This document shows positions 927 to 40,439 of a stretch of 64,000 nt of DNA, one piece after another. Within the stretch, counting starts at the first letter, position 1; each line of letters starts with the position of its first letter. Made by a program: the position numbers and the translations under genes. Source of the stretch: Eledone cirrhosa (lineage: Eukaryota); the NCBI GenBank assembly GCA_964016885.1, contig OZ024743.1, forward strand, positions 55,366,001-55,430,000, written 5' to 3'. Below the pieces are notes generated by a model. The model saw nothing but the letters and a program-made list of their open reading frames with translations, was not told the DNA's origin and made no database searches.

Positions 927-3900
927 TGTAGGGAGGGAGGGGTGGAGGGAGGAGTGGAGGGAGGAGTGTAGGGAGGAGTGTAGGGAGGGGTGTAGGGAGG
1001 AGTCTAGGGAGGAGTGTAGGGAGGGATGTAAGGAGGGGTGTAGGTGGGGGTGTAGGGAGGAGTCTAGGGAGGAGTGTAGGGAGGGATGTAGGGAGGGGTG
1101 TAGTGGGGGGTGTAGGGAGGAGTGTAGGGAGGTGTGTAGGGAGGGGTGTTGGGAGGGGTGTAGGGAGGTGTGTAGGGAGGAGTGTAGGGATTGGTGTTGG
1201 GAGGGGTGTAGGGAGGTGTGTAGGGAGGAGTGCAGGGAGGGGTGTAGGGAGGAGTGTAGGGAGGGGTGTAGGGAGGGGTGTTGGGAGGAGTGTAGGGAGG
1301 AGTGTAGGGAGGGGTGTTGGGAGGGGTGTAGGGAGGAGTGTAGGGAGGAGTGTAGGGAGGGGTGTAGGGAGGAGTGTAGGGAGGAGTGTAGGGAGGGGTG
1401 TAGGGAGGGGTGTAGGGAGGAGTGTAGGGAGGAGTGCAGGGAGGGGTGTTGGGAGGAGTGTAGGGAGGGGTGTAGGGAGGGGTGTAGGGAGGAGTGTAGG
1501 GAGGGGTGTAGGGAGGGGTGTAGGGAGGAGTGTTGGGAGGGGTGTAGGGAGGTGTAGGGAGGAGTGTAGGGAGAGGTGTAGGGAGGAGTATAGGGAGGGG
1601 TGTTGGGAGGGGTGTAGGGAGGTGTGTAGGGAGGAATGTAGGGAGGGGTGTTAGGAGGGGTGTAGGGAGGTGTGTAGGGAGGGGTGTAGGGTGGGGTGTA
1701 GGGAGAGTCTCTGGGAGGGGTGTAGGGAGGGGTGTAGGGAGGACTGTAGGGAGGAGTGTAGGGAGGGGGTGTTGGGAGGGTTGTAGGGAGGAGTGTAGGG
1801 AGGGGTGTAGGGAGGTGTGTAGGGAGGGGTGTAGGGAGGTGTGTAGGGAGGAGTGTAGGGTGGGGTGTAGGGAGGAGTCTAGGGAGGGGTGTAGGGAGGG
1901 GTGTAGGGAGGGGTGTAGGGAGGAGTGTAGGGAGGGGTGTTGGGAGGGGGTAGGGAGGAGTGTAGGGAGGGGTGTAGGGAGGTGTGTAGGGAGGAATGTA
2001 GGGAGGAGTGTAGGGAGGGGTGTAGGGAGGAGTGTAGGGAGGAGTGTAGGGAGGAGTGTAGGGAGGAGTGTAGGGAGGGGTGTAGGGAGGAGTGTAGGGA
2101 GGAGTGTAGGGAGGGGTGTAGGGAGGAGTGTAGGGAGGAATGTAGGGAGGGGTGTTGGGAGGGGTCTAGGGAGGTGTGTAGGGAGGAATATAGGGAGGGG
2201 TGTTGGGAGGGGTGTAGGGAGGTGTGTAGGGAGGAGTGTAGGGAGGGGTGTTGGGAGGGGTGTAGGGAGGAGTGTAGGGAGGAGTGTAGGGAGGGGTGTT
2301 GGGAGGGGTGTAGGGAGGAGTCTAGGGAGGTGTGTAGGGAGGAATATAGGGAGGGGTGTTGGGAGGGGTGTAGGGAGGGGTGTAGGGAGGAGTGTAGGGA
2401 GGAATGTAGGGAGGGGTGTTGGGAGGGGTGTAGGGAGGAGTGTAGGGAGGAGTGTAGGGAGGGGTGTAGGGAGGTGTGTAGGGAGGGGTGTAGGGAGGTG
2501 TGTAGGGAGGAGTGTAGGGTGGGGTGTAGGGAGGAGTCTAGGGAGGGGTGTAGGGAGGGGTGTAGGGAGGGGTGTAGGGAGGAGTGTAGGGAGGGGTGTT
2601 GGGAGGGGGTAGGGAGGAGTGTAGGGAGGGGTGTAGGGAGGTGTGTAGGGAGGAATGTAGGGAGGAGTGTAGGGAGGGGTGTAGGGAGGAGTGTAGGGAG
2701 GAGTGTAGGGAGGAGTGTAGGGAGGAGTGTAGGGAGGGGTGTAGGGAGGAGTGTAGGGAGGAGTGTAGGGAGGGGTGTAGGGAGGAGTGTAGGGAGGAAT
2801 GTAGGGAGGGGTGTTGGGAGGGGTCTAGGGAGGTGTGTAGGGAGGAATATAGGGAGGGGTGTTGGGAGGGGTGTAGGGAGGTGTGTAGGGAGGAGTGTAG
2901 GGAGGGGTGTTGGGAGGGGTGTAGGGAGGAGTGTAGGGAGGAGTGTAGGGAGGAGTGTAGGAAGGGAGGGGGGGGGGGGTGTAGGAAGGAGTGTAGGGAG
3001 GGGTGTTGGGAGGGGTGTTGGGAGGGGTGTAGGGAGGGGTGTTGGGAGGAGTGTAGGGAGGAGTGTAGGGAGGGGTGTAGGGAGGAATGTAGGGAGGGGT
3101 GTTGGGAGGGGGTAGGGAGGAGTGTAGGGAGATGTGTTGGGAGGGGTGTAGGGAGGAGTGTAGGGAGGAGTGTAGGGAGGGGTGTAGGGAGGAGTGTAGG
3201 GAGGAGTGTAGGGAGGGGTGTAGGGAGGAGTGTAGGGAGGAGTGTAGGGAGGGGTGTAGGGAGGAGTGTAGGGAGGAGTGTAGGGAGGGGTGTAGGGAGG
3301 AGTGTAGGGAGGAGTGTAGGGAGGGGTGTAGGGAGGAGTGTAGGGAGGTGTGTAGGGAGGAGTGCAGGGAGGGGTGTTGGGAGGAGTGTAGGGAGGGGTG
3401 TAGGGAGGGGTGTAGGGAGGAGTGTAGGGATGAGTGTAGGGAGGGGTGTTGGGAGGGGTGTAGGGAGGTGTGTAGGGGGAGTGTAGGGAGGGGTGTAGGG
3501 AGGAGTGTAGGAGGGGTGTAGGGAGGTGTGTAGGGAGGAGTGTAGGGAGGTGTGTAGGGAGGAGTTTAGGGAGGGTTGTTGGGAGGGGTGTAGGGAGGTG
3601 TGTAGGGAGGAGTGTAGGGAGGGGTGTTGGGAGGGGTGTAGGGAGGTGTGTAGGGAGGAGTGTAGGGAGGGGTGTTGGGAGGGGTGTAGGGAGGAGTGTA
3701 GGGAGGGGTGTAGGGAGGAGTGTAGGGAGGAGTGTAGGGAGGAGTGTAGGGAGGGGTGTTGGGAGGGGTGTAGGAAGGAATGTAGGAAGGGTGTAGGGAG
3801 GAGTGTAGGGAGGAGTGTAGGGAGGAGTGTAGGGAGGGGTGTTGGGAGGGGTGTAGGAAGGAATGTAGGAAGGGTGTAGGGAGGAGTGTAGGGAGGTGTG

Positions 3901-4478
3901 TAGGGAGGAGTGTAGGGAGGGATGTAGGGAGGAGTGTAGGTAGGGGTGTAGGGATGAGTCTAGGGAGGGGTGTAGGGAGGGGTATAGGGAGGAGTGTAGG
4001 GAGGGCTGTAGGGAGGGGGTGTAGGGAGGGGGTGTAGGGAGGGGGTGTAGGGAGGAGTGTAGGGAGGAGTGTAGGGAGGGGGTGTAGGGAGGGGTGTAGG
4101 GAGGGGTGTAGGGAGGAGTGTGGGTGGGGGTGTAGGGAGGGATGTAGGGAGGGGTGTAGGGAGGGGTGTAGGGAGGTGGGTAGGGTAGGGTTTAGGGTGG
4201 GGGTGTAGGGAGGTGTGTAGGGAGGGGTACAGGGAGGAGTGTAGGGAGGGGTGTATGGGGGTGTAGGGAGGAGTGTAGTGAGGGGTGTAGGGAGGAGTGT
4301 AGGGTGGGGTGTAGGGAGGAGTGTAGGGAGGGGTGTAGGGAGGGGTGTGGGGAGGGGTGTAGGGAGGTGTGTAGGGAGGAGTGTAGGGAGGTGTGTAGGG
4401 AGGAATGTGGGGGTGTATGGGGGGTGTTGGGAGGGGTGTAGGGAGGGGGGGATGTGGGGGTGTATGGAGGGGTGTTGG
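927..4478 (+). repeat. G-rich 12-bp minisatellite (GTAGGGAGGRGT)n, about 3.5 kb
   Basis: Tandem unit GTAGGGAGGAGT/GTAGGGAGGGGT with variants (GTTGGG, GGTGT, GGAAT). The GRSV/CREE ORFs are translations of the repeat. Confidence 0.97.
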
Positions 4479-6137: not shown

Positions 6138-6203
<66 letters not shown>

Positions 6204-6204
6204 T
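6138..6204. repeat. (GATA)n microsatellite at the 3' flank of Tx1 copy 1
   Basis: Pure ATAG run abutting the element terminus. Confidence 0.95.
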
Positions 6205-6420
6205 ATTTCTTTATTTACCATAAAGGCATAAAAAGAAGGGACAAATACAAAGGGGGAGTTTACATAAAACTGAGTAAAAAGGGTATAAAATGAAAATAAT
6301 CAAAAACAACCTCAAAAGGGAGGGGACGTGATGGGGGTTGCACACACCCACGAAAAAGTGTGCAATCCTTTGCCCGGGGAGCACACAGAGAAGGTGCTCC
6401 CCGCCCCTTCATTTCTTTAC

Positions 6421-9398
6421 CTACAGGATGGTATACAGAGAAGGCCCATTTACACGAGCCATTCTCGCCACTATCACCCACCTTTCATAAAACTGCCTGT
6501 GGCCAAGCACCTCTCTCTCCATTCTTATCCTTCTTCCGAAGTGATATCGGAAGAAGTAGACCAGACTATGGCCAGAGAGGAAGTTGCCTGACCTCAGACC
6601 TTTCAATCGTGTCCACCAAACAACCTCTTTCAACATGGCTATTACGCACAGAAAAACCGCCTTTGCTTCCTTTGTGAAGAGGGAAGGCGGCTTGATTGTC
6701 AAAACGGACTCGGCGGTCAATCGAATCGGCGCCACCCGCGACAGCAGTCGTTCGGCGTAGCCCCACAGATCAGCCACGCCCGGACATTGCACCAATGCGT
6801 GCGCAACGGTTTCTTCGTGACGCACGCATCTAGGGCAAATCTTTTTCGAGGGATCCCTGCCCGGGCGCCCGTGTCTGTAGAGCTTTTCTCGAACGGTTAG
6901 AGCCCCCCGGTAGCACTGCCAGGCCAGTGACTTCTGGAAGTTGTCCATTGGTCCCGGGCCGAAAGTCCTACCGAACAGGCTGGCCAGTTGATCCTCTTCC
7001 ATGTCCAGCGACTCTCCAAGGGTGTCATCGCCCCTGCTAGCCACCAGCCCTCTATAGAATGACGAGGTGGATTCTCCACCGATGGCCGGGTCCGCTTGCC
7101 AGCAGATGGATCTTCTCACCATAGGAGGGCGCTTTTTCCAAAGAAATTGAAAGAGCATGCGTTCCATGGTGGTGAGTGTTTCCTTAGGGCAAGGCACGAC
7201 AGTCAGGCGGTAGTAAGTGAGGGACGCTATGTAAATGTTCGCCACCTCCGCCCGACCTTTCAGGGACAGCTTACACTTGGCCCATTTCTGGGTCAGTGCA
7301 AACACCTTGCTAGTAACCTCGCCCCAGTTCATTTACACCTGGAGGTCCGGTCCAAACCAGACCCCAAGCAACTTCACCGGGCCCTCCATCCAGTGTCCGA
7401 CGACACCGTCGGGAGGCATCGGTCTGCCTCTCCACGTTCCGAGTTGCAGCCCGATGGATTTTTCCCGGTTCAGTTTCGCTCCTGACAACCTTTCGTATTC
7501 CTCCAGTAGCCGTTCACCTTGATCCTAGAACAGATGTGGTTGCTATGTAAGGCAGTGATCCAGCCTCTGAAAACAGGACCGAACCCAGCCGCCGCTAGCA
7601 CCGCATCCAGGTAACCATGGTCGACCCTATGGAACGCCTTAGACTGATCCAAGTTGATCAGGGCCCCACCGAAGCCGGGTTTGTTGCCAATCCTCTCTAT
7701 GATGTATCGCATGAGGTGGAGGTTGTCGTGAATGGACCTGGATGGCATAGCACATGTCTGCGCATCTCCCACCAGGCTACCCACGACAAGCGCCAACCTC
7801 TTTGCTAACACCTTGGCCAAAATCTTTAACTCTGTGTTTAGCAGGGTTATGGGCCGAAAATTATTTATACTATCCCCCTTGTTCTCGTCCTTCCTCACCA
7901 GCGAGACTACGCCCTTGGCTACAGAACAAGGAATTCTCCCGTTCTGATGCCAATTGCAGTAGACTGCTTCGAGGAGTTCGGAGAAGAAGACCGGCATTGC
8001 CAAATAAAGTTCGTAAGGTATACCATCGCGTCCTGGAGATTTGCGTCTGCTGCATTGGCTCAGCGCATCCCCGATCTCATCAGCCGAGATTGGTCCCTCG
8101 CAGGACTCTGCCTCTTCGCTCGAGAGACGCGGCAGGCCGTCGAGGTATGGACCGAAATCCACGTCCCCACCCGGACCCCCGCCTCCCCCGAACAATCGGG
8201 CAAAGTGCCTTTGAAAGGCCTCGCACATCTGCTTAGGCTCCCCGATCATCCGTCCATCCTCGTCTTGCAAAGACCCGATGGTGGATCGATTTCAACTCTT
8301 AGCTTCTGTCACGCGGGCCCAGCCAACGGCTTTGGCCCCCTCATTACCTAGAGCACGTATTTTACTTCGAATGACGCAGCCTTCGTGCTTTGCATCGAAA
8401 AACTGGCTCAAGGCCGTCCTCGATGCCAGCACTCTGGCCACATCTTCGCTCTTGATTGCCTCTTCTAATTTACCTGTTAATTCTTTCTCGTTCCTATTCC
8501 TATCGTCAGCTAACATCTTACTATAACTTATTGATTCTGTTCTAATCTCTCTTTTGAGAGATGCCCACCATCGGTTGTTGACGATTGCACCCGTTAACCT
8601 CTCCTTAACTAATCTGCTAATCCGGTCTCTGTAAGCCTCTTTTGCCGGTAAAGACAAATTAAGTTTCCAGTAACCGGGACCCTGTCTATGTGTTCTCTCG
8701 AGGTTGACTACGCAGGTCACTAATTTGTGATCTGTATAGCCAACCGTGAGCATTTCTGGACAGCTTAATATGTCCCTATCCTTACTTCTAACTAAGAATC
8801 TATCTAAGTACGATCTAGATTGACCACTGTGGTTCGTCCAAGTCCACGTTGGCACAGTTGGCAAATCTAGTCGATATCTATCGATCAAGTTAAAAGTAAC
8901 CCTTTGAGGCTGTTACACCCCTCTATTAGGACTTGCTCCTGCATAGTCCCAACGTGCATCTAGGATGTCATTCCAGTCTCCCGCTAGAAGCAGAGAACGC
9001 GACGTTCCCAGAAAAGTCTCCAGACGCTGGAAGAAGTCGGGTCATTCAGCTCCGAAAGGGGAGTAGACGGCGACCAGTCTCAAGGCCGCACCTCCACTAC
9101 TGCCAACGTCTAGCACCAACAAACGACCTTCCGGGTCCGAGTGAACAACCTGTACGGCGAGACCCAGGTGTTTTTCCAGCAGTACGACAACCCCACCCCC
9201 ACCTCCAGGTTGACAGAGAGATGCGTGCACCTCAAAGTCATCGAAGGTAGAGGCCAGCTGCCACACGACGCTGATCCGAGTCTCACAGATAACCATTACA
9301 TTTATACCACGTGGCCTGAGGTCATTTAGAAGCTTTGCTTGCTTCCAAGTTGAGCCCAGGCCTCGTGCATTCAAACATCCTACTCTTAACACATCCAT
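6421..9398 (-). pseudogene. Tx1 ORF2 (APE endonuclease-RT-CCHC zinc finger), frameshifted with two internal deletions
   Basis: Pieces 9042-9398 (GCLNARGL, APE), 8292-8888 (SYLDRF, TDHK), 7470-8270 (FRPITLLN, LDQSKAF) and 6421-7332 (CPRC...HALVQC). The QGCPLS/YADD segment is missing. Confidence 0.9.
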
Positions 9399-9431
9399 GT
9401 GGGCGGCAAAGCCAAAGGAGAGTGTAGAGAC

Positions 9432-11331
9432 CTACCTTTCTGCTTCCCGGGGTTCGGGTCGCACGACTTCCATGGGGTCGGGGGTGTTGGGTGAAGGGGT
9501 GTCTTGTGGTGGTGTGGGGTCGTCAGTGTGTGGTGGGGTTGGGGTGTTTGGAGTTGTGTTGGGGAGGAGAAGGGGAGGGGGAAGGCTTTTTAGGAGGACA
9601 CGGTTTATGGGTTTGACAGAGGATGGTCCAACGTCCTCCTTAAAATCCTTTAGTTTTTGGTAGAGGTTCATTGGGATCTTTATTAATTTTAAATGTGGGT
9701 AGTTTTCTGAAGAAACAAAGTTTACCCCTTCGGTTTGTACCGTTGGGTTATTGTTTATGAGTTCATTTAATTTATTATTGTTTCTGTTGATTTAAGTATA
9801 GTGTAATGTATTTTTTTCGGATGGTGTGAGTGTTTCGAAGAGGGGAGGGGCAGGTTTGGTTTTGTTTGTTGCTGGAGGGGTATTTTGTGTTTTGTTGGAT
9901 TGTGTTGACATTTGGGTAGGGGCTGTTTGGCCTTGTGTGTTTTGCACATGTTTTCTTTTTTTCCTTTTAATCTGTCTGAAGGACTCCGTTTCTTCCTCCG
10001 AATTCGTTGGGTTATCTTCAGTGTTGGAGGGAAGAGGTATGTTTGCTGGTAATGTTTCCGTGTTGGTTTTCTTTGTGGAGGAGATGGATGTCACTATGTT
10101 AGACTGTGTTGTGTGTTGTGGCTGCGGTGGTTGTGTTGTTTTATTGAGTGGGGGGTTGGGTGGGACTGTGTTTTGTTTTTGAGTAATTTGTTGTGTCTGT
10201 TTGTGTTGTGGTGGTGGTGTAGTTTTACTGAGGGACGGGTTGGGTGGGACTGAGTTTTGTTGTTTGTTTATCTGTTGTGATGGTGGTGGAGCTGGTGTTG
10301 GTAGCAGGGTTTTCTTCTTGTTGAGTTGGGGACAAGCCGCCTTCAGGTGCCTTCTTCCTGCACAGATATGACAGGACGGCCTTCTCCCCTCCACGCTAAT
10401 GTTTATATACCTGTGGCCCTCTAATAGGATTCTGTCGGGTATTTGGGCAATGCGTTCAGGCTTCATCTGCACTACAAGTTCTATACCTGTTCCACTGAAC
10501 GCATTGCCTGTGGTTTTCCCAATGGAAATCACGTTGTCATTCGCTGGATCGATGAAGCCAGCTATGAGCCAGCAGTAGTCCATATCTAGCATCATCGCAT
10601 CCAGCCATATGCGCTGAGTTCTTTTACCCATATAAGATGGATAAAAGGTAAAATTTGTCGAACGAATCGGCGACAAGGCATATTTTTTTGCCGCTGATTC
10701 GTTCTTCATAATAATGGCTAGGCTTCCATACAGCCTGTCTCTTCTTAAGAAAGTGGCTTCATTAAGTACTTCTCTAAGTACTGCTTTAATTTCTGCTTGT
10801 GTTGGTTGTTGAGGTTTTTTTTAGATGTTGTTGATGGTGCGGAAAACGACCGTCCGACTTTCAATATCTTTGGTGAGTTCTTGGGGCATTTTTACCGATA
10901 AGGTTCCATTTTCCCCTTGAGTTATGAATTGTTTGGCGTTTTTTATTCTTTGTGCCACATCTGAAATATTTTCAGGTATATATGTTAAAGATTGTTTTGT
11001 TGTTTGTGCAATGAGATATTATTGGTGTTGACTTTGTCGTCTGTTTTGCTTTCTGTTATAATGATGTTTTCAAATGTTATTTTTGTGTTTGCTGTTTCTT
11101 TGTTTGTGGTATTAATATTGTCATGCAATTCTTTCAAATTTTTGTTGTTGTTGGAATCAATCTCCAGATTTGTGTTTTCGTCATTTTGCTCCGCACATTC
11201 GTCTGTTTTTATTTTATTTTTTCTTTCCTTCTCTATGACGTTAGTTGGGAAGGAAGGGGGGACTAAAGCGTGCGAGCTTACAACTCTTACCGCTGTCCCC
11301 CACCACTATATTCGTTAGCTTCGTTTAACAT
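9432..11331 (-). pseudogene. Tx1 ORF1 (zinc-knuckle nucleic-acid-binding protein), disrupted
   Basis: ORF 9792-10709 carries CHICAGRRHLKAAC (CX2CX4HX4C) and continues in frame after a premature TAA into 9432-9671. The N-terminus is frameshifted. The ATG at about 11331 aligns with the copy 3 start. Confidence 0.8.
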
Positions 11332-11572
11332 TTCTGCCAGACGATTGAAATTTTATACAACAAAATTTTTAAAAACAGGTTTTTCACCCCTGGGAGGGGC
11401 GAAAATGAGCTGACCCACCACCTGACAGTTCAGACGGGGGGGGGGGGGTCAAGCGACACAATAGTGTCAAAATTAAAATTAAACTTACAGAATTTCCGCA
11501 ATAAATTGGAACAAAACTTCTGCGCTAAGTGAATTACGTCTACGCTATCGAACAGACGACAGCTAGACCTTC

Positions 11573-11636
<64 letters not shown>
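11573..11636. repeat. (GATA)n microsatellite at the 5' flank of Tx1 copy 1
   Basis: Pure ATAG run. Confidence 0.95.
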
Positions 11637-11637
<1 letters not shown>

Positions 11638-12609
11638 GTTCAAAGAAAAAATAATTTCTAATTGAAGCACAAGGCCCACAATTTTGTGGGGAAGGAAGTT
11701 TAGAGGCTGGATTATCATCAATTATATTGATCCTCTAGTTTTAGACTGCTACTGTAATTTATCTATCTCGGGAGGGTGAAAGATCAAGTTGAGCACGGCT
11801 CTATTTGAACTCGGAATGTAAAGAGTCGGATCAAAATCCACCAAATTATTGATCTGCTTCTCTAACGAATCTGTCCATCAAATGTTCTGTACTACAGGTA
11901 CCGATGGTCGGTATACCTGAGCTGGGCAGTGGGATGAGTTACTACAAAATGACTCAAATAGGTTATGTTTATGACCTCTGTCGGCTAAACACCCTCCTAT
12001 GCGCCCCCGTCGTGACACAGGCTCCACCAAATTAGGTTGGTTGTGAAAGCGAGAGCTCGGCGCTATAACCGATGCAATGCTTGGATTGCACTATCCTAAA
12101 GTTCATATAATTGCTGCTGGGCACCAATTGTGAAGCCAATCGCCCGAAGAAACTCCACTGAAATGAACTTACACCATGAATTCCTTTGATGGAGCCGGCT
12201 CAACCTCTAACAGGTAAACGCCGCTACAAGTCAAAGTATAACAGACGATGACGATGGTGGTGCTGGTAGTGGCACTGGTGGTGGTGGTGCTGGTAGTGTT
12301 GATGGTGATGATGAAAATAACAATAATGATAATGATGATGACGAATCAGATGATGATGATGACAATGAATATGATAAGGATGTTAATGATGATGACGATG
12401 TTATGATGATGATGATGATGATGATGATGACGACGAAGAGGATTATAATGATGGCAGTTGATGATGATGATGATGGTGATGTTAATAGTGGTGGTGGTGG
12501 CGATTGTGGTGTTAGCTATAGGTTTGCGTTGCTGGATGTGTTGTAAGGGAATGATTGATGCTTTAGCATTTGTGTTTACATGATGGTCATAATACTTGGG
12601 GTGATGTGA

Positions 12610-13025
12610 TTAGGAGAGGGGCCTGGGTATTTAGGACCCTAGGCCTGCTCTACAATGTGTCCCCTCCTCCCAAATTGATTGGCAAACTGGGAAAACTAGT
12701 TTTTGACACTTCTTACTCTGACCACACAAAGAAAATTATAAAGCCAGCATTTTCCACTACACAGTCCACACTCACCCACGTCAAATCATGTGACGGGTTA
12801 TTACACCATGTAACCCTCTCCGCCGCTTTTGATATTAGCACAACGCTGCCACATGGCAAAGATGTTTAATGATTTATTTTACTGGTCGTAAGAAATTTAA
12901 ATATATTTAATTTAGTTATAGACATTTGTATAAAATTGTTATCCTTTATGTTTCGGTAAAGTATCTCTTCAAAGGCTGAGCCCTAAGCGGCTGCCTAGTT
13001 GGTTTTAATGGTAGCGCCACTCCTG
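12610..13025. mobile_element. Possible hAT-derived non-autonomous DNA transposon remnant
   Basis: Right end reads CAGGAGTGGCGCTACCATTA...ACTAGGCAGCCGCTTAGGGC on the minus strand, resembling hAT MITE termini. The left end is poorly defined. Confidence 0.35.
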
Positions 13026-13678
13026 ATTGCCCTCATTAATGTCCTACTGTGTCATCTTTCATAGGGAGAAGTCAACAAGAATATTCTGCAGAAAGAATGA
13101 CAGTATTACCTGATAATGTAACATTTGGATAAGACTTGAATAAGATTTATTTAGAAACGACCACGGTATTCTCGCATTTGTGTTTGAACGAGAACATCTG
13201 TCATCTGTCCAGTCAAAGAGAAGCTATCAATTCGAGAAACAACGACGACGACAAAGAAGAAGAAGAAGAAGAAGAAGAAGAGCACTTATCATCTCGTTAA
13301 AACCCACACAAGCATAGCTTCGTTGATCAGAGGATGCTTAGAGACAGATTTATCATGATGACACACTATCACGAAATCATAAATATCTGCATGAGAGAGG
13401 AACGACGAGAGAAGCAGTCATTCTTTATTGAAGTAAGCCTCGTAAAAACAATGGTATCCTCTCGTCTGGTGGAGAAAAGCTGTAACTGTAGAATTTTGGT
13501 TCCTTCTCCAAAGTAAAGAGATTATTTAGATTCCAGACATATCTTTCATTCATTGATTTAAATTCAGGAATATTTTCCATAACGATTTAACGAACAATAA
13601 GTAACCGCCAATTTATTAAATCTGTGTAAACCACTGACAATTTAACCGTCATTTAACTATTTTCACTGATAAAGTAAC

Positions 13679-14050
13679 TTTATTAAATATTTAAATACGG
13701 AAAAGGAATGGCTCTAGGGTCATAGAAGAATGGGAGGGAAGGTGGAAGATGATGGGTTCTGTGCCTAGGGCGCGGCGGTGTTGGGGCTACGCCTCGCGGG
13801 CAAGACTGGAAAAGCCTTTCCGCGGTCAATGGCAAGCGACACTCGCTGCAACAGCCACCCCTCCTCGCGGGACTCCTTCCTCAGACGGGCTGACGACTGT
13901 CCGATCTTGCAGAGGAGCTTGGTAGTTCGGGGTTCGAGTAAAGCTGAAGTCTCGACGGCGACCCGTGCAAAGAGGAAGCGGCCGGACAACCCTCGGTATT
14001 TGTTTGTCTTCCTTTCCTCTGCATTGCGGGGCGCAGTACCGAGGTTTGTG
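13679..14050 (-). mobile_element. 5'-truncated CRE-clade non-LTR retrotransposon (RLE C-terminus plus 3'UTR)
   Basis: ORF 13765-14067 reads AEERKTNKYRGLSGRFLFARVAVETS...REEGWLLQRVSLAIDRGKA, the typical CRE C-terminus (QR.S.A..RGNA). It is a GC-rich island ending in a minus-strand AATAAA near 13680. Confidence 0.75.
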
Positions 14051-15206
14051 TTAAAGTATAAAGACATTTGCCATTGTTAAGCAGATATTTTCTGTAGAGT
14101 TACCATGATTTTCAACAAAGATTATTTAACAAACCGTAACCTACTGTTTGTTTAATGCCTCTAAACCACTGACTGGTATTTATCTACTTTCACTGTTAAA
14201 GTATGGATCTGCTCTAATAGATCCATAGAAGTCAAGAATTTAGTAAACGATTATTTCAATTTCTCTATTCTTGGGTCCCAAATAATAGGGAGGGTGGATT
14301 AAGCGGGTGGTTGAATAAGTGGTGTTGCATAAGCGGGGGCTAAATAAGCAGGGAGTTAGAATAAGCACCATGAGTTCAAATTTCACCGAAGACCACTTTG
14401 CTTTTCGTTTATTTAAAGATCTTTAAAATAACAGCCCAAGGTGGTGGATTGATGTAATTTTAGAGCACTAGACGAGCTGTTTTGCGTTAATTGTTTCAGC
14501 TCACTGCGTTCAGAGATAAATGTCACCGGGGTCCATCTTTTGAATTTTGCATTTGATCTTTTGGAAACCCATTAACAAAAAAAATAATTAAAAAAGCACC
14601 AGTCCAGGGTGATGATTGGTGAGGTTGGCAGAATCACCAATATTTCAATTCCCATTAGCACCTTGAAGCGGTTTGTAAACATGTATTATATAGACATACA
14701 TTTGACATATCCAGGGTTATGTAAACCCCTCCCGCTCCTTTACTTTAAAACTCCAGGTTAGAATTCGATACGTATTAAGAAAAGAGCGGGGACAGCCTGT
14801 GTTGAGAGAGGAGAGATGTAGCGCGAGGCTAGTAATCTGTCTACAGTAATAAAACATAGCTACTGAAACGACGAGTCGTCGAATACTCTAAAAGAAGCAA
14901 AAGGAGCTAAAGAAGGAAAAAGAGAAAGAAGAGTTACAAAACCATATGTTTTTGTTTTTTTTTCATGATAAACTTTGTATGTTGTAACACCGTCTTTTCC
15001 GAGATCAACAGAACAGCCTGTTCGTGAAATTAACTTTCAAGTGAGTAAGCATTTCTCAGAAACATAGACCCTTAACATAGAGTGACAAGACAGACTCTTT
15101 AAATTACTGATCCAGCCCCTCACCCATATGATGGTCTTCTAAACAGCCTATTCGTGAAATTATTGAGCAGGTGGCCGATTCAGCATGACAGTGTGTAACA
15201 AATGTA

Positions 15207-15600
15207 CTCTCGGGTCCCAAATTATAAAGAGGAGTTGGAATAAGAGAGGGTGGAATAAGCAGGCTGCTTCGATAATCGGTAATTTTTGTAGGTTGACTCC
15301 GATGATTTAAAAAAAAAACATGAATTAGTCGTTTAGTTTACATATTGAAGCCTCAACCTATTCTATTTATTTTATAACGTAGAGGATTGCAACATTCTTC
15401 TTTTGTTTTTTGTCATATGTAATGTTTTTTTAATGTATAAAAAAAATTAACTGTCGTAGGAAAGCTACTAATTAAAACAGAATTTCGCCAGAGAGATAAA
15501 AAGAAATTAATAATCGGGGGGAGGGGGGTAATAGCGTGGGTGTTGGAAATATCTGAAAATTAATAACCTGTGGGAGAGAAGATTATTTAAAATCCGATGT
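15207..15600. mobile_element. Degenerate TA-flanked MITE (same family as 51925-52321)
   Basis: Starts TA|CTCTCGGGTCCCAAAT and has internal GGAATAAG subrepeats. The right TIR is degenerate. A partial related end lies at about 14268. Confidence 0.5.
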
Positions 15601-15922
15601 AGCTTTTTGAAATACAATTTTAATCAGTCGTGTACACCGCGAAATAAAGTTTTGTTTTTTTTAATGTCACAGCGCGCGGCTGGGGCCGAACCCAACGACA
15701 TTACAACGCTGAGTCGAACACACTAACCAGTAGGCCACGCGCCTTTCATTGTAACTAATTGTATATTTAACTTGTTTATGGGTTAGAAGTGGATTGTATT
15801 CTAATTATTACCCACAATTTCTTTATTTTTCTTTACTCTTCTTCCCCAGATTGAAAGTTTCTTTCTGTCTCTCTCACACCGTCTCTCTCTCTCTCTCACA
15901 CACACACGCGCACACACACACA

Positions 15923-15994
<72 letters not shown>

Positions 15995-16145
15995 CTCTCT
16001 CTCTCTATCCACCTATCTATCTACCCACATAGCTATCATCCTATCTATCTATATGTCTGACTATCTATCTGTCTATCTATTTATCTACCCACCTACCCAA
16101 ATCTCAACTTATCTATCTATCTATCGATCTATCTATCTATCTATC

Positions 16146-17110
16146 TCGAGTGCCTACAGGCGCTCACAGCCCTCTACCAAGCGGAAACGGCAATCAGCGG
16201 AGACTCCACTTCGACATTCTATAGGGGATTAGTGGAGGATAAGTGCGACGACGTTCTCGGGGAAACTCTAGGCATCGAGGAGGACGAACTGACCAGTCTG
16301 TTCGGGAGGACTTTCCGTCCAGGGCCTATGGATAACTTCCAGAGGTCTCTGGCCTGGCAGTGCTACCGAGGAGCTCTACCAGTTAGAGACAAAATCTACA
16401 GGCACGGACGCCCTGGCAGAGATCCTGCCAAAAGGACCTGTTCAAGATGCGAGCAGGACATCGAAACCGTTCTGCACGCAATTGTTCAGTGCCCAGGGGT
16501 GACCGAGCTGTGGAATTATGTCGAACAGCTACTCTCACGAGTGGGACGCATCCAGTTCTCAGCCGAGTCCATCGTGAGTATCACCCCGCCGCCTTCATTT
16601 AAGAACGAAGGAGAGGCGGTTTTCATCTGTCTGGTGGCTATGGCGAAAGAGGTAATATGGTGGACGAGGTTAAAAGGACTGGGGGCAAACACCTTTCTCT
16701 CCGGACAACAACTTATCCCCTTCTTTAAGTATCACTTCAGAAGGAAGGTAAGAGTGGAGAGAGAGGTGCTACACCCCAGCAAATTCCTTGAAAGGTGGGT
16801 GAATGTGATAAAAATGGCCCGAATGAATGGGCCTTCTCTGTATATAAACCTGTAGGTTGAGGAAGATAAACAGAGGGAAGACAGGAACACCTACAAAACG
16901 TGTTCTTGGTGTTGAGGGTTGTTCTATCCACGGGGTGTAAAACAACCCTGCAGTAACGTCCCCCCCCCCCCTACTGGGGATTTCAATTGTTATTTTATTA
17001 TATATAGTTTATTGTTATTTATTAATATTAAAGTTATTTTTATGTAAAACCCCCGCCGTCACGTCTTGTAATGTCCCATTTTTGTACGCCCCTGTGGCAA
17101 ATAAAGAAAG
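16146..17110 (+). mobile_element. Tx1-clade LINE copy 2, 5'-truncated
   Basis: ORF 16232-16855 is the ORF2 C-terminus (GPMDNFQ.SLAWQCYRGALP, CSRC...HAIVQC). (ATCT)n lies on both sides, and the 3' end reads AATAAAGAAAG|ATATCTATCT. Confidence 0.92.
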
Positions 17111-17361
17111 ATATCTATCTATCTATCTATCTATCTCTCTATCAGTCGTGTGTCACTTCGCGGAGAAGTTTCCGTTAATTTATGTAAGGAAAAAACGTGA
17201 GTTTTTAGTTCAATTTTATATCATTGTGTAACTTGACCACCCGTCTGGACCTTCAGGTGGTGGGTCAACTCATTTTCGCCCCTTCAGGGGCGGAATATCC
17301 ATTTAAAAAATTTTTCTCCATCGAATCTTGGAAAAAAATATTGTAAAATTTTGATTACGTT

Positions 17362-19279
17362 ATGAACGCTGCGTCCAACGATAATGGTGGTGGAGAGGCG
17401 GTAAGACTACCAAGCTCGCAGTCAACAACGTCTTCTTCACTAAATACTATAGAGATGGAAAGACAAAATGAAAATAAAAAAACGAATTCACATCCAAACA
17501 ACACAAATGACACCAAACAGCTCAATGACAACAAAAATAACAGCAAAACCAATAATGATGATAAAAGCAACAATGATAACAACAACAAAGAAAAAAATAA
17601 AGACAACGCCAATAACACCAGCATCAAAGACAACAACAACACCAAGGAAAATACGGATGATACCAACATCGGTGACAACAAGAATAACAACAAGAATAAC
17701 AACAATAATGACAACACCACCAATACGGATTCCACAAAGAAACCAAAAATCTCCTTTGCGGAGAAAGTTCAAAAGAAAGAACAATTGATATATCTCGACA
17801 TAACAAATGCTGAACACCTTTTAAAGGACGCTAAGAGATATGTCACCTTCGAAAAAAATGGTGCTTTCAGCATCAATTCTCCGGTAGAAATTCGCAAGGA
17901 AACTGCTCTCAAAACGATAGTTTTTAGGACAGTTTCCAATTCTACCCGAAAACCAGTCCAATTGTCACAGAAAGATATTGAACTGGTTTTCAAAGATTCA
18001 ATGAATGATATTGCATTCATTCAAAGAAGCAAACTTTTTGGGAGTATTTCGGTACTGATGAAGGATCAATTGACGGCCCAAAATTACTCTGTGTCGCCAA
18101 TTGTATCCAACCTGTACACCTTTTTCCCTACATACATGGGAAAAAGGACACAAAAGATCAGAATCACAAGTGTCACACCAAAGGTGAACATATGGTGGAT
18201 ACTGTGCGGCTTCATCAATTTTGATGAAGACAGAATACTGTCAGTAGGCAAGTCCCCCAGAGATGTATTCAATGGGACTAGCATTGAAGTTCTGGTGCAA
18301 ATGAGCCCAGAGCGAATAGCTATGATCCCACAGCGTGTACTCCTGGACGGACTTACCTACATAAACCTTTCGGTTGAGGGTAGGCGGCCTTCATGTTACC
18401 ATTGCTTTAGCAGGGGTCACCTGAGGGCTTCCTGTCCTAAACTAATGAACCAAAAAAAGGCTCTTCTGCCAACACCCATCAAAACAACACAACCACCAAC
18501 ACCACCACTACAACAACAACACCAACACACAAAAATAACCACAACAAACACAGTCCCACCCAACCTCACTCCACCTAAAACCACTGCAAAATCACATACA
18601 GACACAACAGCTCCCCAAGACATACCCCTCCCCAATCACACAGACGATACAACAGATGAGGCTATCTCGCCATCACCCAGTGAAGACGAGGGAGAACCCC
18701 ATCGCTCGAAAAGAAAGAAAAGACATCACAAAAGCAAAAAACCAGCAAACACTACCACAAACATACAACCACCAACACAAACAACAAAAATATCACAAAC
18801 AAAACCCCCACCTCCTGAAAACAAAATACCTACAACAAAACGAAAGCACACACAAGAACTACAGACAAAAACAAACACAACACAAGAAAATTACACTTAC
18901 ACTTACATAAACACTGAAAACAAAACACTAATGGAGACCATTACGAACGACCCTTCGGTTTTCACCGAAGGGAAAACTTTCGCCCACTCTATAAAAAATA
19001 GCAAAAAAAATGAACCTAAAACTGATTAGGGTCCCTATACAAACTTATAGGTCCCTAAAAGAAACATTTGAGAAGGATGTGGGGAATTCCTGCGTGAAAC
19101 CACTCAACCGCGTCCTTCTCAAATGCCTCCCCACCCCAGACACCCCCATTCCACCAGACCCCACCCCACCAAACATCTGCGTCCCCACCCCGCCGGAAAC
19201 CACCACCCATCCAGACAACCCCTCCAACACCCCCATGGAAATCGTGCGGCCTGGTCCCCAGGAGGCGAAGGGTGAGTGA
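17362..19279 (+). CDS. Tx1 ORF1p (Asn-rich N-terminus, CCHC zinc knuckle, Pro/Thr-rich C-terminus), split by a +1 frameshift in an A8 run
   Basis: ORF 17362-19029 contains CYHCFSRGHLRASC. ORF 19010-19279 is homologous to a segment that is in frame with ORF1 in copy 1. Confidence 0.82.
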
Positions 19280-19312
19280 TCTCTTTTCCTCTTTTAACTT
19301 TTCAGCACCAAC

Positions 19313-22300
19313 ATGGCCAATATAAGAGTTGGATGTGTGAACGTACGCGGCCTGGGGATGCCCTGGAAACAGGGCAAACTCTTAAACGACCTCAGGTCGC
19401 ACAGTTTGGATGTGGTAGCCATTTGCGAGTCCAGGATCCACGGCGAGCGACAGCTGGCCCCCATCTTCGATGACTTTGAGATCTACGCATCTCTCTGTCA
19501 ACCGGGGGGTGGGGGCGGAGTTGCCGTTTTGCTGCGGAAACACCTGGGCCTCGTAACACAGACGGTACATCTGGACCCGGAGGGTCGACTGGTGGTCCTA
19601 GACGTTGACGGTAGTGAAGGTGGAGCGTTCAGGCTGGTGGCCGCATATGCCCCATCCGGGACACCGCGGCCAGACTTCTTCAAACGTCTAGAGACTTTTC
19701 TGGGAACGTCCCGCTCCTTGCTTTTAGTGGGGGACTGGAATGGAATCCTAGATGCACGTTGGGACTATGTGGGAGCATGTCCCGATAAAGGGGGGTGTAA
19801 CAGCCTCAAACAGTTAATCGACCGATTTGACCTGGCCGATAGATATCGACTAGATTTTCCGACTGCGCCACTGTGGACGTGGAGTAATCGTAGCGGAACA
19901 TCTAGATCGTACCTAGATAGGGTTCTAGTTAGAAATAAGGATAGGGACATGTTAAGCTGTCCACAAATGTTCATGGTTGCCTATTCAGATCACAAACTAG
20001 TGACCTGCATGGCCAACCTTGATAGAACCCATAGACAAGGACCCGGCTACTGGAAGCTGAACTTGTCGTTACCGACAAGCAAAGCCTACAGTAGACGGAT
20101 TAGCACTTTAGTTAAACAGCACTTGACAGGGGCCATTGTCAACAACAGATGGTGGTACTCTCTCAAGAGGGCAGTTAGATTAGACTCGATAGTTTTTAGT
20201 AAAGAATTAGCGTTAGATAGAAATAGAACCGAGAAGGAACTGGTAGATAAAGTAGAAGAGGCTATTAGAAGTGGCAACGTAGCCAGCGTGCTAGCAACGA
20301 GAACGGCCTTGGACCAGTTCTTCGACGCAAAGCACGAGGGCTGCGTTGTCAGAAGCAAAATACGTGCTCTGGGAAACGAGGGAGCCAAAGCTGTTAGCTG
20401 GGCCCGAGTGACGGAGGCAAAAAGTGGCAACAAGTCCACGATTCGGTCTTTGAAGGACCAAAACGGACGCGTGATACGTGAGCCGAAGCAGATGTGTGCG
20501 GCTTTTCAGCGGCACTTTGCTCGGCTGTTCGGGGGGAGCGGCGCGCCGGGAGAGGCTATGGATTTCGGTCCATACCTCGACGGCCAACCGCGACTCTCGG
20601 ACAGCGAGGCGAAGTTCTGCGAAAAGCCGATTTCAGCCACTGAGATAGGGGACGCGCTGAGCCAATGCGGCAAACGCAAATCTCCAGGTCTCGACGGTCT
20701 ACCCTACGAATTTTACGTAGCAATGCCGGACTTATTCTCCGGTCTCCTGGAAGCGGTCTACTGCAACTGGCAACAGAACGGGAGAATTCCCAGTTCTGTA
20801 ACCGGGGGCGTGGTCACACTAATCAGGAAGGACGAGAATAAGGGGGATGACATAGGCAACTTCCGGCCCATAACTCTGCTAAACACAGAGTTACAGATTT
20901 TGGCCAAGGTGTTGGCAAAGAGGCTGGCGCTTGTCGTCGAGAACCTGGTGGGAGAAGCGCAGACATGCGCGATCCCGACCAGGTCCATACACGACAACCT
21001 CCACCTCATGCGATACATCATAGAGAGGGTAGGGTGTAAACCCGGCTTCGGTGGGGCCCTGATCAACTTGGATCAGTCTAAGGCTTTCGATAGGGTTGAC
21101 CATCGTTACCTGGATGCGGTGCTCGAGGCGGCAGGCTTCGGACCCGTGTTCAGGGGCTGGATTGCTGCAATGCACAACAGCAACATCTGCTCAAGGGTCA
21201 AGGTGAACGGTTACCTCTCGGAGCCGTTCCATATTACGCGATCCATTCGACAGGGATGCCCTCTCTCCTCCCTTCTGTACGTACTGACTCTCGAGCCACT
21301 ACTGCGGAAGCTGGAGCTATTGCAGGGCATCCCTCTGGAACCGGGACTGCGGAAAGCGGCGTCGGCCTACGCCGACGACGTGACAGTAATGGTGTCGAGC
21401 GCCTCGCAAATCGAGGAGGTCGGCACCTTACTAAAGGAATACGAAAGTCTCACAGGAGCGAAGCTGAACCGGGACAAGTCCATCGGTTTGCAACTCGGAT
21501 CGTGGAGAGGCAGACCGATGCCTTCCGATGGCGTCGTCGGACGCTGGACGGAAGGACCGGTAAAGCTGCTCGGGGTCTGGTTTGGTCCGGACCTCCAGGT
21601 GGAGAAGAACTGGAACGAAGTGACGGCCAAGGTGTTTGCACTCACCCAGAAGTGGGCCGAGTGCAAACTATCCTTGAAAGGTCGAGCGGAGGTGGCGAAC
21701 ACTTTTATAGCGTCCGCCATCTACTACCGCTTGACCGTCGTGCCTTGTCCAGCCAAAACGCTCGCCAAAATGGAGCGCGCCCTCTTCCGATTCCTTTGGA
21801 AGAGGCGGGCTCCTTTGGTAAGAAGATCCATCTGCTGCCAACACCCTTCTAACGGAGGGCTGGGGATGCCGTGGTTGACGATGCGCAAACACGCGCTCAG
21901 GCTGCGGCATCTCTACGTATTCCTCACCGGACAACCGGTGTGGGCCCCGTTCGTGAGGCGAGCCTTCCCACGACTCGTCTCGCTGACCGAGCTGCAGTCC
22001 TGGGTCAAGCAGAGACCGAGGAAAATGGGCGACTGGCACATCGAATGTGCTCAGGCGCTCACAGCCCTCTGGCAGGCGGACCCGGCGATCAGTGGAGACT
22101 CCACTTCGTCATTCTATAGAGGGTTGGTCCGCAGCAAGTGCGACGACGCGCTCGGTGAAACTCTAGGCGTGGAGGAAGATGAACTGGCCAGTCTGTTCGG
22201 TAGGACCTTCCGCCCGGGACCGATGGACAACTTCCAAAAGTCCCTGGCCTGGCAGTGCTACCGAGGAGCTCTACCAGTTCGAGACAAGCTCTACAGACAT

Positions 22301-22750
22301 GGGCGCCCGGGCAGGGACCCTGCAAAAAAGATCTGTCCGAGGTGCGTGCGAGACGAAGAAACCGTCGCGCACGCATTCATACACTGCCCGGGCGTCACTG
22401 ACCTGTGGGGCTATGTGGAACGACTATTGTCGCGGGTGGGACCAATCCAGTTGACCACCGAGTCCATTGTCATGATCAAACCGCCACCCTCCTTCAAAAA
22501 CGAAGGAGAGGCGGTTTTCCTTTGTGTGATAGCTATGGCGAAAGAGGTTGTATGGTGGACAAGGTTGAAAGGGCTGAGGTCAGACACCTTTCTCTCCGGC
22601 CAACAACTGATTCTTTTTTTCAAATACCACTTTGGAAGAAGAATCAGGATGGAGAGAGAGGTGCTGTACCCCAGCAAGTTTTATGAAAGGTGGGTGAAAG
22701 TGGCGAGAATGGCCCGAGTGAATGGGCCTTCTCTCTATATCAGCCTGTAG
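19313..22750 (+). CDS. Tx1 ORF2p: APE endonuclease, reverse transcriptase and C-terminal zinc finger, 1145 aa, intact
   Basis: APE motifs NVRGL, ICES, GDWN, SYLDR and SDHK. RT motifs FRPITLLN, LDQSKAFDRVDH, RQGCPLS and AYADD. Also GGLG and CPRC-X8-HAFIHC. Confidence 0.96.
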   Translation: MANIRVGCVNVRGLGMPWKQGKLLNDLRSHSLDVVAICESRIHGERQLAPIFDDFEIYASLCQPGGGGGVAVLLRKHLGLVTQTVHLDPEGRLVVLDVDGSEGGAFRLVAAYAPSGTPRPDFFKRLETFLGTSRSLLLVGDWNGILDARWDYVGACPDKGGCNSLKQLIDRFDLADRYRLDFPTAPLWTWSNRSGTSRSYLDRVLVRNKDRDMLSCPQMFMVAYSDHKLVTCMANLDRTHRQGPGYWKLNLSLPTSKAYSRRISTLVKQHLTGAIVNNRWWYSLKRAVRLDSIVFSKELALDRNRTEKELVDKVEEAIRSGNVASVLATRTALDQFFDAKHEGCVVRSKIRALGNEGAKAVSWARVTEAKSGNKSTIRSLKDQNGRVIREPKQMCAAFQRHFARLFGGSGAPGEAMDFGPYLDGQPRLSDSEAKFCEKPISATEIGDALSQCGKRKSPGLDGLPYEFYVAMPDLFSGLLEAVYCNWQQNGRIPSSVTGGVVTLIRKDENKGDDIGNFRPITLLNTELQILAKVLAKRLALVVENLVGEAQTCAIPTRSIHDNLHLMRYIIERVGCKPGFGGALINLDQSKAFDRVDHRYLDAVLEAAGFGPVFRGWIAAMHNSNICSRVKVNGYLSEPFHITRSIRQGCPLSSLLYVLTLEPLLRKLELLQGIPLEPGLRKAASAYADDVTVMVSSASQIEEVGTLLKEYESLTGAKLNRDKSIGLQLGSWRGRPMPSDGVVGRWTEGPVKLLGVWFGPDLQVEKNWNEVTAKVFALTQKWAECKLSLKGRAEVANTFIASAIYYRLTVVPCPAKTLAKMERALFRFLWKRRAPLVRRSICCQHPSNGGLGMPWLTMRKHALRLRHLYVFLTGQPVWAPFVRRAFPRLVSLTELQSWVKQRPRKMGDWHIECAQALTALWQADPAISGDSTSSFYRGLVRSKCDDALGETLGVEEDELASLFGRTFRPGPMDNFQKSLAWQCYRGALPVRDKLYRHGRPGRDPAKKICPRCVRDEETVAHAFIHCPGVTDLWGYVERLLSRVGPIQLTTESIVMIKPPPSFKNEGEAVFLCVIAMAKEVVWWTRLKGLRSDTFLSGQQLILFFKYHFGRRIRMEREVLYPSKFYERWVKVARMARVNGPSLYISL

Positions 22751-23007
22751 GTTGAGGAAAAGGAGGAGGAGAGGAAAGGAGTACAAGCTCTTCGTACTCC
22801 TGGAGATGAGGGTTGCACATTTTTTTCGGGGGTCTGTGTTACCCATATAAACTGTCTCCCTCTATTGGGGAAAATCGACTAACTTTTAAATTCCATCTGT
22901 GATAACATTTTACACGTTTTTATTGTATGTAAACTTCCCCCTTTGTATTTGTCCCCTTCTTTTGTGCCCCTGTGGCTAATAAAGAAATATATCTATCTAT
23001 CTATCTA

Positions 23008-23051
<44 letters not shown>

Positions 23052-38043: not shown

Positions 38044-40439
38044 TTAATTGTAAGTTGTGATGTTGCTGTTCCACTCATATTTTCTATTTAATTTTGGTTG
38101 TAATTCTTTTATGTTTACTGCCTCTGTAATTTGTCTAAACATTGCATCTTTTCTGTGTGTAGATTCTATTTTTATTTCTATGTTCTCTAATTTACCCTTG
38201 TGTTCTATCTTAGCATGTTGGTAGAGTACAGATGATTCTTTATTATCTTGAAGGTCTCGCCAGTGTTCATTTATCCGTTCCCCTATACTACGAGCTGTTT
38301 CACCTATGTACACTATATTGTTGTTTCTACATTGTCCTTCAGTACATCTTATGCTATACACTACATTTCTAGTTTTACAGTTAATATGGGGGCTTATTTT
38401 ACAGGTTATACATTTCTTATCTATACATGAGGGTCTTTGGAACGGGTATGTCTTGCTAATAAGTGTTTTTACGGAGGTACCTGGTCTTTCTACTATCTTA
38501 ATATTGAGTTTATGTTTATTTAGGGCCCTTCTAAATTTGTAGGCTAGTTCGACTCTAGGGGTTGTATTGATGAACATTACACTCTGGTATTTATTGCTAT
38601 CATACCATGAGTTTATTCTATTGGCCTTGTTCCTAGTTCTTTCTATTCTATTCCAAAATTTGCTCCTATACACGGGGCAGGTCCCATTTATGTCATTATT
38701 TACCATTTTTTCCCATTTGGTTCTGACTCGTCTATACACTCTGATTCTATCTCTCTGATTGTAGCCAGAGAACTGCATACGGTGGATGAAGTGTTGTATG
38801 TGTCTCTCTAGTTCTTCGGGGTTGCACATGCGGGACACATTTCTCATCACCCGTACCAAATCCGCAATCAGTATGTTGATTTTGGTATGGTCCGAAATGG
38901 CCGAGTTTCGGTGGATCAGATGTTTGGAAGTCATGGGTTTGGCATAATGGGAATGGAGGATTTGTTTTTGGTTGTTAATGGTATCTAACCAGAGCTCTGT
39001 GTCTAGTACAGGTAATCTAAGGTTGGGGTGTCTACTTGGGTAGTCTATAGTAACTCTAATGCTCTGGTGGATGGAGTTTGCTATTTGCTGGATGCTTTCC
39101 ATTGTGTTTTTCCCTAGTTCCTGACTGTTCTCTAGTGGGGGTGTCTTAACTACGATGTTTATATCATCTACGTAGCGGGAGTACATTATCAGGGTTAAGC
39201 TGTCTTCTAATTGTTCTTTAAGTTTAAGTTTAAGTCTACTGTCCCACCATACCATGAATAAGTTAGCTATGTCGCCTGCAATGCTAACACCAATGGCTGC
39301 TCCTTCCTCTTGGGCATATGTTTTTCCATTAAATTTGAACATATCTTCCTTAAGGTTTATTTTTATGCCGGCCCCTACCGCATGTGCAATCATTTTCTTC
39401 AGTTCATCGTGGTTTTCGGGTGTCCGTATGGCTCTGGTCCACCCGTTCCATCTATCTGTGTGGGTTTTCTTGGACATTGAGGTAATGGTAGGTGGTCTGC
39501 CTCTTGCTGGTCTTGTAGGGCACAGGTTGCTAAGGTCATAAGTGTCTAGGTAACTATTACTATGGGTAAGCTTAAGTAGAAGTCCCAGCTCACTGGTATC
39601 AATCCCACGGAACTCAACCTTCCTCTCGCTGATCATTTCGACGCATTTCTCCACAGCAAAATCCACGTCAATAGATGGATACAGGGACACAACATCCATA
39701 CTGCCTATTATGGAGTTTGTTAGGTCCCCAGATCGGTTACTCACGCCAATTCTGCTGAGGAGATCCTCCGTGCTGTCACATACATCTGGGGAATCTCAAT
39801 GATGGGGCGTATGATCAGGGAGAGCAAGTAGGGCAGTCTGTAGTTACTAGCAATGTTAGCTCCACAGACTGGCCGTGTTGGTGGTCCCGCGACAGGGTCA
39901 CAGCCCGTTTTATGGTCTTTTCGAAGCCCATACAACGCCGGCACGTCATTGTTCCAGACCTGGAAGTTGTTGGCAATCCTTTTGTTGGGCTGCATTATAT
40001 TCGTCCACATCACCATATGGGCATTGAGGGCTTTTTCTCTATCCTCATGCTCCTGTGGTGTTACCTCTCTTGTGTTAGTGATGTGGGGTTGCATTGCCTG
40101 GATGTAGTTTGGCAGGCTGTCAACCGACATCCTGCCAGACTTGTCTGTTGGAAAGCATGCTATCTCTCCATTACGTGAGCGCTGCATGAGCTTACGCAAG
40201 CCATTTACAGATTTTTCTCCCAGTTGCTGGGCCTCTATTCTATTAGGCTTCTTGCTATACTGTTCTATAATATTTCTAAGTTCGGATCTAGCTATACTAA
40301 ATTGTGCTTCTGTTTGTTCATCGACCTGCGACAGCAACTGCGTGCGTTTGTTAAATGGTAAAGTCGTGGCGTGGACTCGTCGCAGGTCGAATGATTTATC
40401 GGAGGGATTATAAAACGGAGAGCTCCAGACTGCTGCTTT
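38044..40439 (-). CDS. PLE reverse transcriptase plus C-terminal GIY-YIG endonuclease, 5'-truncated, one frameshift near 39795
   Basis: Motifs PTDKSG, LYGLRKDHK, PTRPV, then after the frameshift DSTEDLL, SMDVVSLYPSID, GAAIG, YSRYVDD, LPVLD, a Cys linker and VVYSIRC...YIGETARSIGERINEH. Confidence 0.9.

Follow-up and report, generated by a model that had tools for sequence, protein, structure and literature searches.

The 64,000-nucleotide stretch of the Eledone cirrhosa genome analysed here (the window; GenBank assembly GCA_964016885.1, contig OZ024743.1, forward-strand positions 55,366,001 to 55,430,000) contains three copies of a long interspersed nuclear element (LINE) embedded in ATCT repeats. 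They belong to a young, high-copy lineage of the L1/Tx1 type. Its copies are found, always in the same orientation, at a short motif, C^TAT(C/A)T, mostly within (ATCT)n, probably because its apurinic/apyrimidinic-type endonuclease (APE) nicks the AGAT strand at this position to prime reverse transcription. As copies 1 to 3 are 72–82% identical in pairwise comparison, they represent three separate families, referred to as f1, f2 and f3. The preference for ATCT is strong in the youngest family, f3, and weak in f1. Recognition of ATCT by the endonuclease itself is inferred from the precedent of Tx1L, whose endonuclease nicks almost exclusively its own target (PMC1950540).

Genomic copies were sampled as the best matches to the three window copies, extended where needed, and three duplicates as well as run-offs at the 5′ side were removed. 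An 8-mer of the ATCT repeat is located on the sense strand within 30 bases of the 5′ break in 44 of the 68 5′-truncated copies (f3 25/30, f2 16/27, f1 3/11), and ATCT is found in the 3′ flanks of 47/68. The first-pass annotation, made from the window alone, had named a lack of ATCT at most genomic 5′ junctions as the outcome that would speak against its proposal of a repeat-specific element; most breaks carry it. Its statement that polarity is conserved, with ATCT always on the sense strand, likewise holds in the sampled genomic copies, as antisense AGAT occurs at 0/68 breaks. The background frequency of the 8-mer is 57 in 39,880 random 34-nt windows (0.14%), drawn from both strands of twenty random 10-kb stretches. 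Elements have been termed target-specific when one sequence type occupies more than 20% of the flanks (PMC4494074); the corresponding proportions of ATCT are 44/68 at the 5′ side, 47/68 at the 3′ side and at least 40% of the 6,665 f3-type ends genome-wide, 2,672 of which are followed by an exact T(A/C)TATCTAT, a strict lower bound because variants starting with CATATCT or TGTATCT are missed. A general preference for microsatellites was rejected, since (AT)n, (AG)n and (AC)n exceed (ATCT)n in abundance by a factor of 20 to 160 and yet are rarely used (per 200 kb of random sequence: (AT)6 328, (AG)6 50, (AC)6 46, (ATCT)3 2), and ATT is found at 0/68 breaks of the ATCT families.

LINEs of the CR1, L2 and RTE type possess element-encoded repeat tails, which are copied from the RNA and occur at the 3′ side only. 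ATCT might similarly be a tail encoded by the element or added by the reverse transcriptase, the 5′ tracts then being contributed by neighbours in tandem arrays. Such an origin would agree with the presence of TATCT after nearly all 3′ ends, with the frequent tandem arrays (11/45 truncated copies) and with the rarity of ATCT arrays in sequence remote from the elements (2 per 200 kb). However, 34 of the 45 ATCT-positive truncated copies in a hand-pruned set have no 3′ end of the lineage within 250 bases upstream, so that tandem neighbours are not the cause of the 5′ ATCT, and the repeat-tail pattern with its clean 5′ flanks is not matched by this lineage.

The target duplications argue in the same direction. 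A duplication anchored in non-repeat sequence was detected in 20 of 110 copies, compared with 30 of 3000 mismatched pairs (1%), and its length is 10–21 bp, save two uncertain ones measuring 23 and 40. In fourteen cases the duplication begins directly after the last base of the element; these duplications start with TATCT in ten and with TATAT in four cases and are preceded by C in 13/14, which defines the site as C^TAT(C/A)T. The target is this short motif, densest in (ATCT)n, rather than the long array itself. In the four insertions at TATAT, the element is not followed by ATCT; ATCT is thus not a copied tail, and the repeat is the target. Moreover, one insertion (L006) resides in a dispersed repeat with 19/19 paralogues empty, most of which already carry the tract, 17 nt long and broken by a single G; the occupied site can be read as an uninterrupted 17-nt tract with a 13-bp duplication. 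One read contig, from a run that possibly derives from the source sample, skips 851 = 838 + 13 bases at this locus. On the basis of ATCT at 5′ breaks, empty paralogues with the tract and the four tail-less insertions, an element-encoded ATCT tail was rejected; the tail explanation as a whole is largely refuted, and we consider it highly improbable.

The distribution could alternatively reflect insertion at a broad range of sites and subsequent purifying selection, or an assembly bias, which spares only copies in microsatellites. Microsatellites are indeed low-cost insertion sites, the association is weaker in older families, and some copies are situated outside repeats. The bias is, however, strongest in the youngest family (25/30), the orientation is strict (antisense 0/68), much commoner repeats remain unused and sister families occupy another repeat in the same genome. 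We therefore attribute only a very small probability to selective survival.

These sister families reside in (ATT)n and were found from pieces in random stretches ending in ATT repeats and by three follow-up searches. They (L217, L202, L205 and L331–L335) share the 3′-end architecture of the ATCT families and are mostly older. After removal of imprecise junctions and run-offs from 75 loci, their truncated copies carry ATT at the 3′ side in 25/27 and at the 5′ side in 9/27 cases, and ATCT at the 5′ side in 0/27. The first 30 ends of the lineage on contig 1 are followed by ATT repeats in 20, by TATCT in 8 and by TA-rich sequence in 2 cases. ORF1 and ORF2 (open reading frames 1 and 2) are both intact in the young ATT family L333, whose ORF2 is 71% identical to that of f3. 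In a tree of whole ORF2 the ATCT families form one clade (100/100) as sister to one ATT group (98/99), and a second ATT group branches outside both; a single ATT clade is rejected by the approximately unbiased (AU) test with p-AU 0.010, an optimistic value because the ATT group was named after the first tree. As the ATCT clade is nested among ATT groups, one ATT-to-ATCT switch is the simplest reading, and the sequences suggest that a single recent switch in which the TAT core was kept is likely.

Residues tracking the target comprise 11 of 240 positions in the APE and 19 of 905 in the rest of ORF2 (p = 0.04, uncorrected for the domain rate). One of them, Tyr152 of the APE (versus Cys), aligns at or beside Arg155 of L1, a likely DNA-contact residue (PMC1950540). 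We tentatively propose, with somewhat less confidence than doubt, an undescribed cephalopod L1/Tx1 lineage whose endonuclease switched from (ATT)n to (ATCT)n via a few APE substitutions, for which there are 11 candidates. Metagenome contigs were searched for the flanks of the distant relative P0005, and none were found.

Several points weigh against an endonuclease-determined preference for ATCT. The sampled copies are best matches and hence biased towards young copies, and 24 of the 68 truncated copies, including 8/11 in f1, lack the ATCT 8-mer at the break, although at least three of these misses (L157, L161 and L168) are internal breaks called as ends. Some copies sit in other repeats, namely (AT)n, (ATC)n or (CA)n, or in sequence of an unrelated kind, and the exact string T(A/C)TATCTAT follows only 2,672 of the 6,665 f3-type ends, even if as a strict lower bound. 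The target-tracking residues are only mildly enriched in the APE, the AU test is optimistic as stated above, and the residue at the tip of the B6-B5 loop does not separate the two groups, as one ATT copy has the ATCT-type residue. Finally, nicking specificity is described as not the sole determinant of L1 integration (PMC1950540). The GATA-repeat-targeting family proposed in the first-pass annotation is thus to be redefined: the preference is real, but the target is a short motif, f1 follows it weakly (3/11), and the wider lineage also holds (ATT)n families.

Full-length copies require separate consideration. A CT interruption is present just 5′ of the element start in 26/30 dispersed full-length f3 copies, at locus L059 even without an upstream array, and the full-length f2 copy L166 contains ATCT repeats inside its target duplication. 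The element RNA therefore likely starts with target-like sequence. Because this leader is partly element-borne, 5′ junctions of full-length copies were excluded as targeting evidence; the ATCT-like bases just before such copies are not purely flanking sequence.

Mechanistically, the insertion probably starts with a first nick on the bottom strand at 5′-A(G/T)ATA^G-3′ and a second nick 10–21 bp off, the nick set by the APE on the AGAT strand serving target-primed reverse transcription. Owing to the position of AATAAA near the element end, the transcript would run into the flanking ATCT, which could pair with the nicked strand; reverse transcription would then begin at the element end, so that no poly(A) is copied. 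The target-like 5′ leader on full-length RNA may aid the 5′ joining. Every insertion would leave a target at both ends, and tandem arrays would thereby build up. The duplications at L122 and L155, which take in the first bases of an older downstream element, show how arrays grow. In evolutionary terms, the ATCT specificity would have been derived once from an ATT specificity with the TAT core kept.

The same features can be read in a different manner. A loose endonuclease cutting AT-rich or TAT sites might leave the choice between ATCT and ATT mainly to base pairing between the nicked strand and the 3′ end of a read-through RNA, the target being inherited from the source locus. The AATAAA a few bases from the element end, the missing poly(A), the target-like leaders of full-length copies and the TAT core common to both target types are compatible with such RNA-guided priming, and annealing of target-like RNA has been proposed for SART1Bm and R1Bm (PMC7265360). 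On the other hand, at the four TATAT sites the fourth base would not pair with an ATCT tail, and the C preceding 13/14 resolved duplications is a base not selectable by 3′ pairing. The target type also tracks the ORF2 tree, although the RNA end is co-inherited with ORF2. We consider RNA-guided priming unlikely as the principal determinant and prefer target choice by the endonuclease, to which RNA-target pairing may be a co-factor.

Within the window, the lineage is represented by the following features (positions refer to the first letter of the window as 1):

6138..6203, minus strand: 3′-end (ATCT)n tract of copy 1, as read on the sense strand of the element
6203..11572, minus strand: copy 1 (family f1), a full-length, degraded LINE; ORF2 with stops, frameshifts and two deletions of ~0.2 kb
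9792–10820: ORF1 remnant of copy 1
11573..11637, minus strand: 5′-end (ATCT)n tract of copy 1
15928..16146, plus strand: degenerate TCTA-rich tract with pure ATCT at its end, the truncation point of copy 2
16147..17111, plus strand: copy 2 (family f2), 964 bp, 5′-truncated; end of ORF2 and 3′ untranslated region
17112..17143, plus strand: ATCT tract common to copies 2 and 3; its last bases are the target-like leader with the CT interruption
17144..22989, plus strand: copy 3 (family f3), a full-length, very young LINE
17362..19029, plus strand: ORF1 of copy 3, 555 aa, one CCHC knuckle
19313..22750, plus strand: ORF2 of copy 3, 1145 aa, open
22751..22989, plus strand: 3′ untranslated region of copy 3, ending AATAAAGAAATA; AATAAA just short of the terminus, poly(A) absent
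22990..23010, plus strand: (ATCT)n target tract 3′ of copy 3, grading into (GTCT)n

Coordinates and tracts bear out the three copies with ATCT flanks at the places given in the first-pass annotation, as well as ATCT where copy 2 is truncated and the common register of the ends, which read AATAAAGAAA(T/G)A-TATCT without poly(A) in all three copies. On the forward strand of the genome, copy 1 lies between (AGAT)n at 6138–6203 and (AGAT)n at 11573–11637. The claim of ATCT on both sides of each copy stands as to the presence of the tracts, which number five and not six, as copies 2 and 3 are arranged in tandem with one tract between them. ORF2 of copy 3 had been called intact and is indeed open over 1145 aa; ORF1 of this copy is shortened by a frameshift near its end to 555 aa, compared with 638 aa in most siblings. 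Both frames are open in 11/26 full-length f3 copies.

ORF2 of copy 3 consists of an APE (about aa 1–235), a reverse transcriptase (RT, aa 511–755) and a zf-RVT domain (aa 976–1032), in accordance with matches to Pfam Exo_endo_phos, RVT_1 and zf-RVT, each above the cut-off. Its best structurally solved relative is human L1 ORF2p (PDB 8sxt; aa 4–856 aligned, E 1.8e-50), and the catalytic motifs of the APE align with those of human L1. Among named proteins, the nearest is one of Argonauta hians, with 67% identity in the RT region, in keeping with a cephalopod host. With a separate ORF1, 5′ truncation, target-site duplication and no long terminal repeats, the lineage is an L1-group (APE-type) non-LTR retrotransposon. 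A quick RT tree, computed without named Tx1 references and unresolved in its deep branches, assigns it to a supported clade that also contains Argonauta and unnamed proteins, amid diverse animal L1/Tx1-like proteins. The Tx1 clade is marked by a Type I ORF1 (RRM plus CCHC) instead of Transposase_22 (PMC5203782). In ORF1, the CCHC knuckle is weak (E 0.062), Transposase_22 and RRM gave no match, look-alikes in the Atlas are of the CCHC/RRM type (0.90–0.92) and, as a lead only, the ZCCHC3 type (0.89), the single-sequence fold is not interpretable (pLDDT 32), and a homologue search returned no homologues. Judged from its CCHC-type ORF1 without Transposase_22, the lineage likely belongs to the Tx1 clade.

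In the genome of 3.0 Gb, the pattern common to the 3′ ends has 28,422 exact matches, a lower bound because f1 and f2 are missed, and the reversed control has 0. Pieces of the lineage occur in 6 of 20 random 10-kb stretches. Family f3 is very young: 40/40 scored matches to its 3′ 589 bases are 100% identical, 150/150 scored matches to its APE are at least 98% identical, and 25 other full-length copies show a mean identity of 99.6% to copy 3.

Some loci deserve mention in their own right. L067, L072 and L073 are one insertion with identical flanks present three times on contig 1, which indicates segmental duplication. L161 and L168 are chimeric, with 5′ and 3′ parts from different families, which suggests template switching or recombination in arrays. 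The 3′ flanks of L029, L030 and L134 share an identical head sequence leading to an ATG and an ORF1-like low-complexity frame, which possibly represents another family associated with ATCT or else a 3′ transduction, and those of L084, L137 and L139 resemble Helitron 5′ ends. The dispersed repeat at L006 (paralogues L222–L240) has 2,925 candidate copies and includes a short ATCT-like tract. Near-identical f3 words are also present in sequencing runs labelled as up to 15 other organisms; contigs from four other organisms contain f3 3′-end pieces with 0–1 differences, joined in two of these organisms to truncated copies via short TCTAT/CTCT links. They may come from close relatives, transfer or mixed samples and do not suffice for conclusions about the range of hosts or about horizontal transfer. 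No RNA run was among those listed with f3 words, which has no bearing on expression.

Elsewhere in the window, a 12-bp G-rich unit forms a tandem array of 3.5 kb with 296 copies (934–4475). Two near-identical frames with RT and GIY-YIG-like motifs on opposite strands (38044–41851) would, by these motifs, fit two Penelope-like elements in inverted arrangement, and a short GIY-YIG-like frame (46412–46903) is, from its motif appearance, probably a further Penelope-like remnant.

The lineage is a large recent force on this genome: its ends number no fewer than 28,000, and a single family contributes 150 or more nearly identical copies of the endonuclease. The new finding is that sister families on (ATT)n coexist with the ATCT families, which are nested among them in the tree. 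An ATCT/GATA target of any LINE was not found in the literature searched, Repbase and Dfam lying outside the scope of the search, and the available parts of PMC4494074 and PMC3812793 do not name (ATCT)n or (ATT)n as Tx1 targets; that the target has been catalogued before is conceivable but rather doubtful. APE recognition of microsatellites is described as poorly understood (PMC3812793) and the origin of new endonuclease specificities as open (PMC1950540). The ATT/ATCT pair, with intact copies of each, 71% identical ORF2 and about a dozen target-tracking APE differences, makes the switch testable by domain swaps. If the proposal is correct, the two would constitute a natural pair for studying how APE enzymes gain targets and possibly a tool for GATA-repeat-directed insertion.

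Among known systems, the closest in targeting are Kibi on (TC)n, Koshi on (TTC)n and crocodilian Tx1 families on (TTCC)n/(TTTC)n (PMC4494074, PMC3812793). These are likewise APE-type L1/Tx1 LINEs in microsatellites with relatives on different repeats; compared by description, their targets are pure pyrimidine strands, in contrast to (ATCT)n and (ATT)n in an invertebrate host. Tx1L of Xenopus is also an L1-clade APE element, with a sequence specificity shown in vitro (PMC1950540), but its target lies within a DNA transposon and is not a microsatellite, and its B6-B5 loop comprises eleven residues, whereas the loop of the present lineage gives an ungapped alignment with human L1. In the related host Octopus vulgaris, 13 recently active L1-Tx1 families with 421 insertions, probably of the same broad group, have been reported (PMC13282606); the word "target" is absent from the main text of that paper. 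Human L1 ORF2p has the same APE and RT architecture, while the weak TTAAAA preference, the poly(A) tail and the Transposase_22 ORF1 of human L1 are not seen here. The target duplications of human L1 are similar in length to those described above.

Outside this group, Waldo belongs to the R1 clade and Dong to the R4 clade with a restriction-like endonuclease. Together with Mino, placed in the R1 clade (PMC3124438), they are microsatellite-targeting non-LTR elements as well (Waldo (ACAY)n, Mino (AC)n, Dong (TAA)n; PMC3812793), Waldo sharing a tetranucleotide target with the lineage described here and Dong the very repeat of its ATT sister families. The clades are different, and the targeting of microsatellites by these elements and by the Eledone lineage is convergent.

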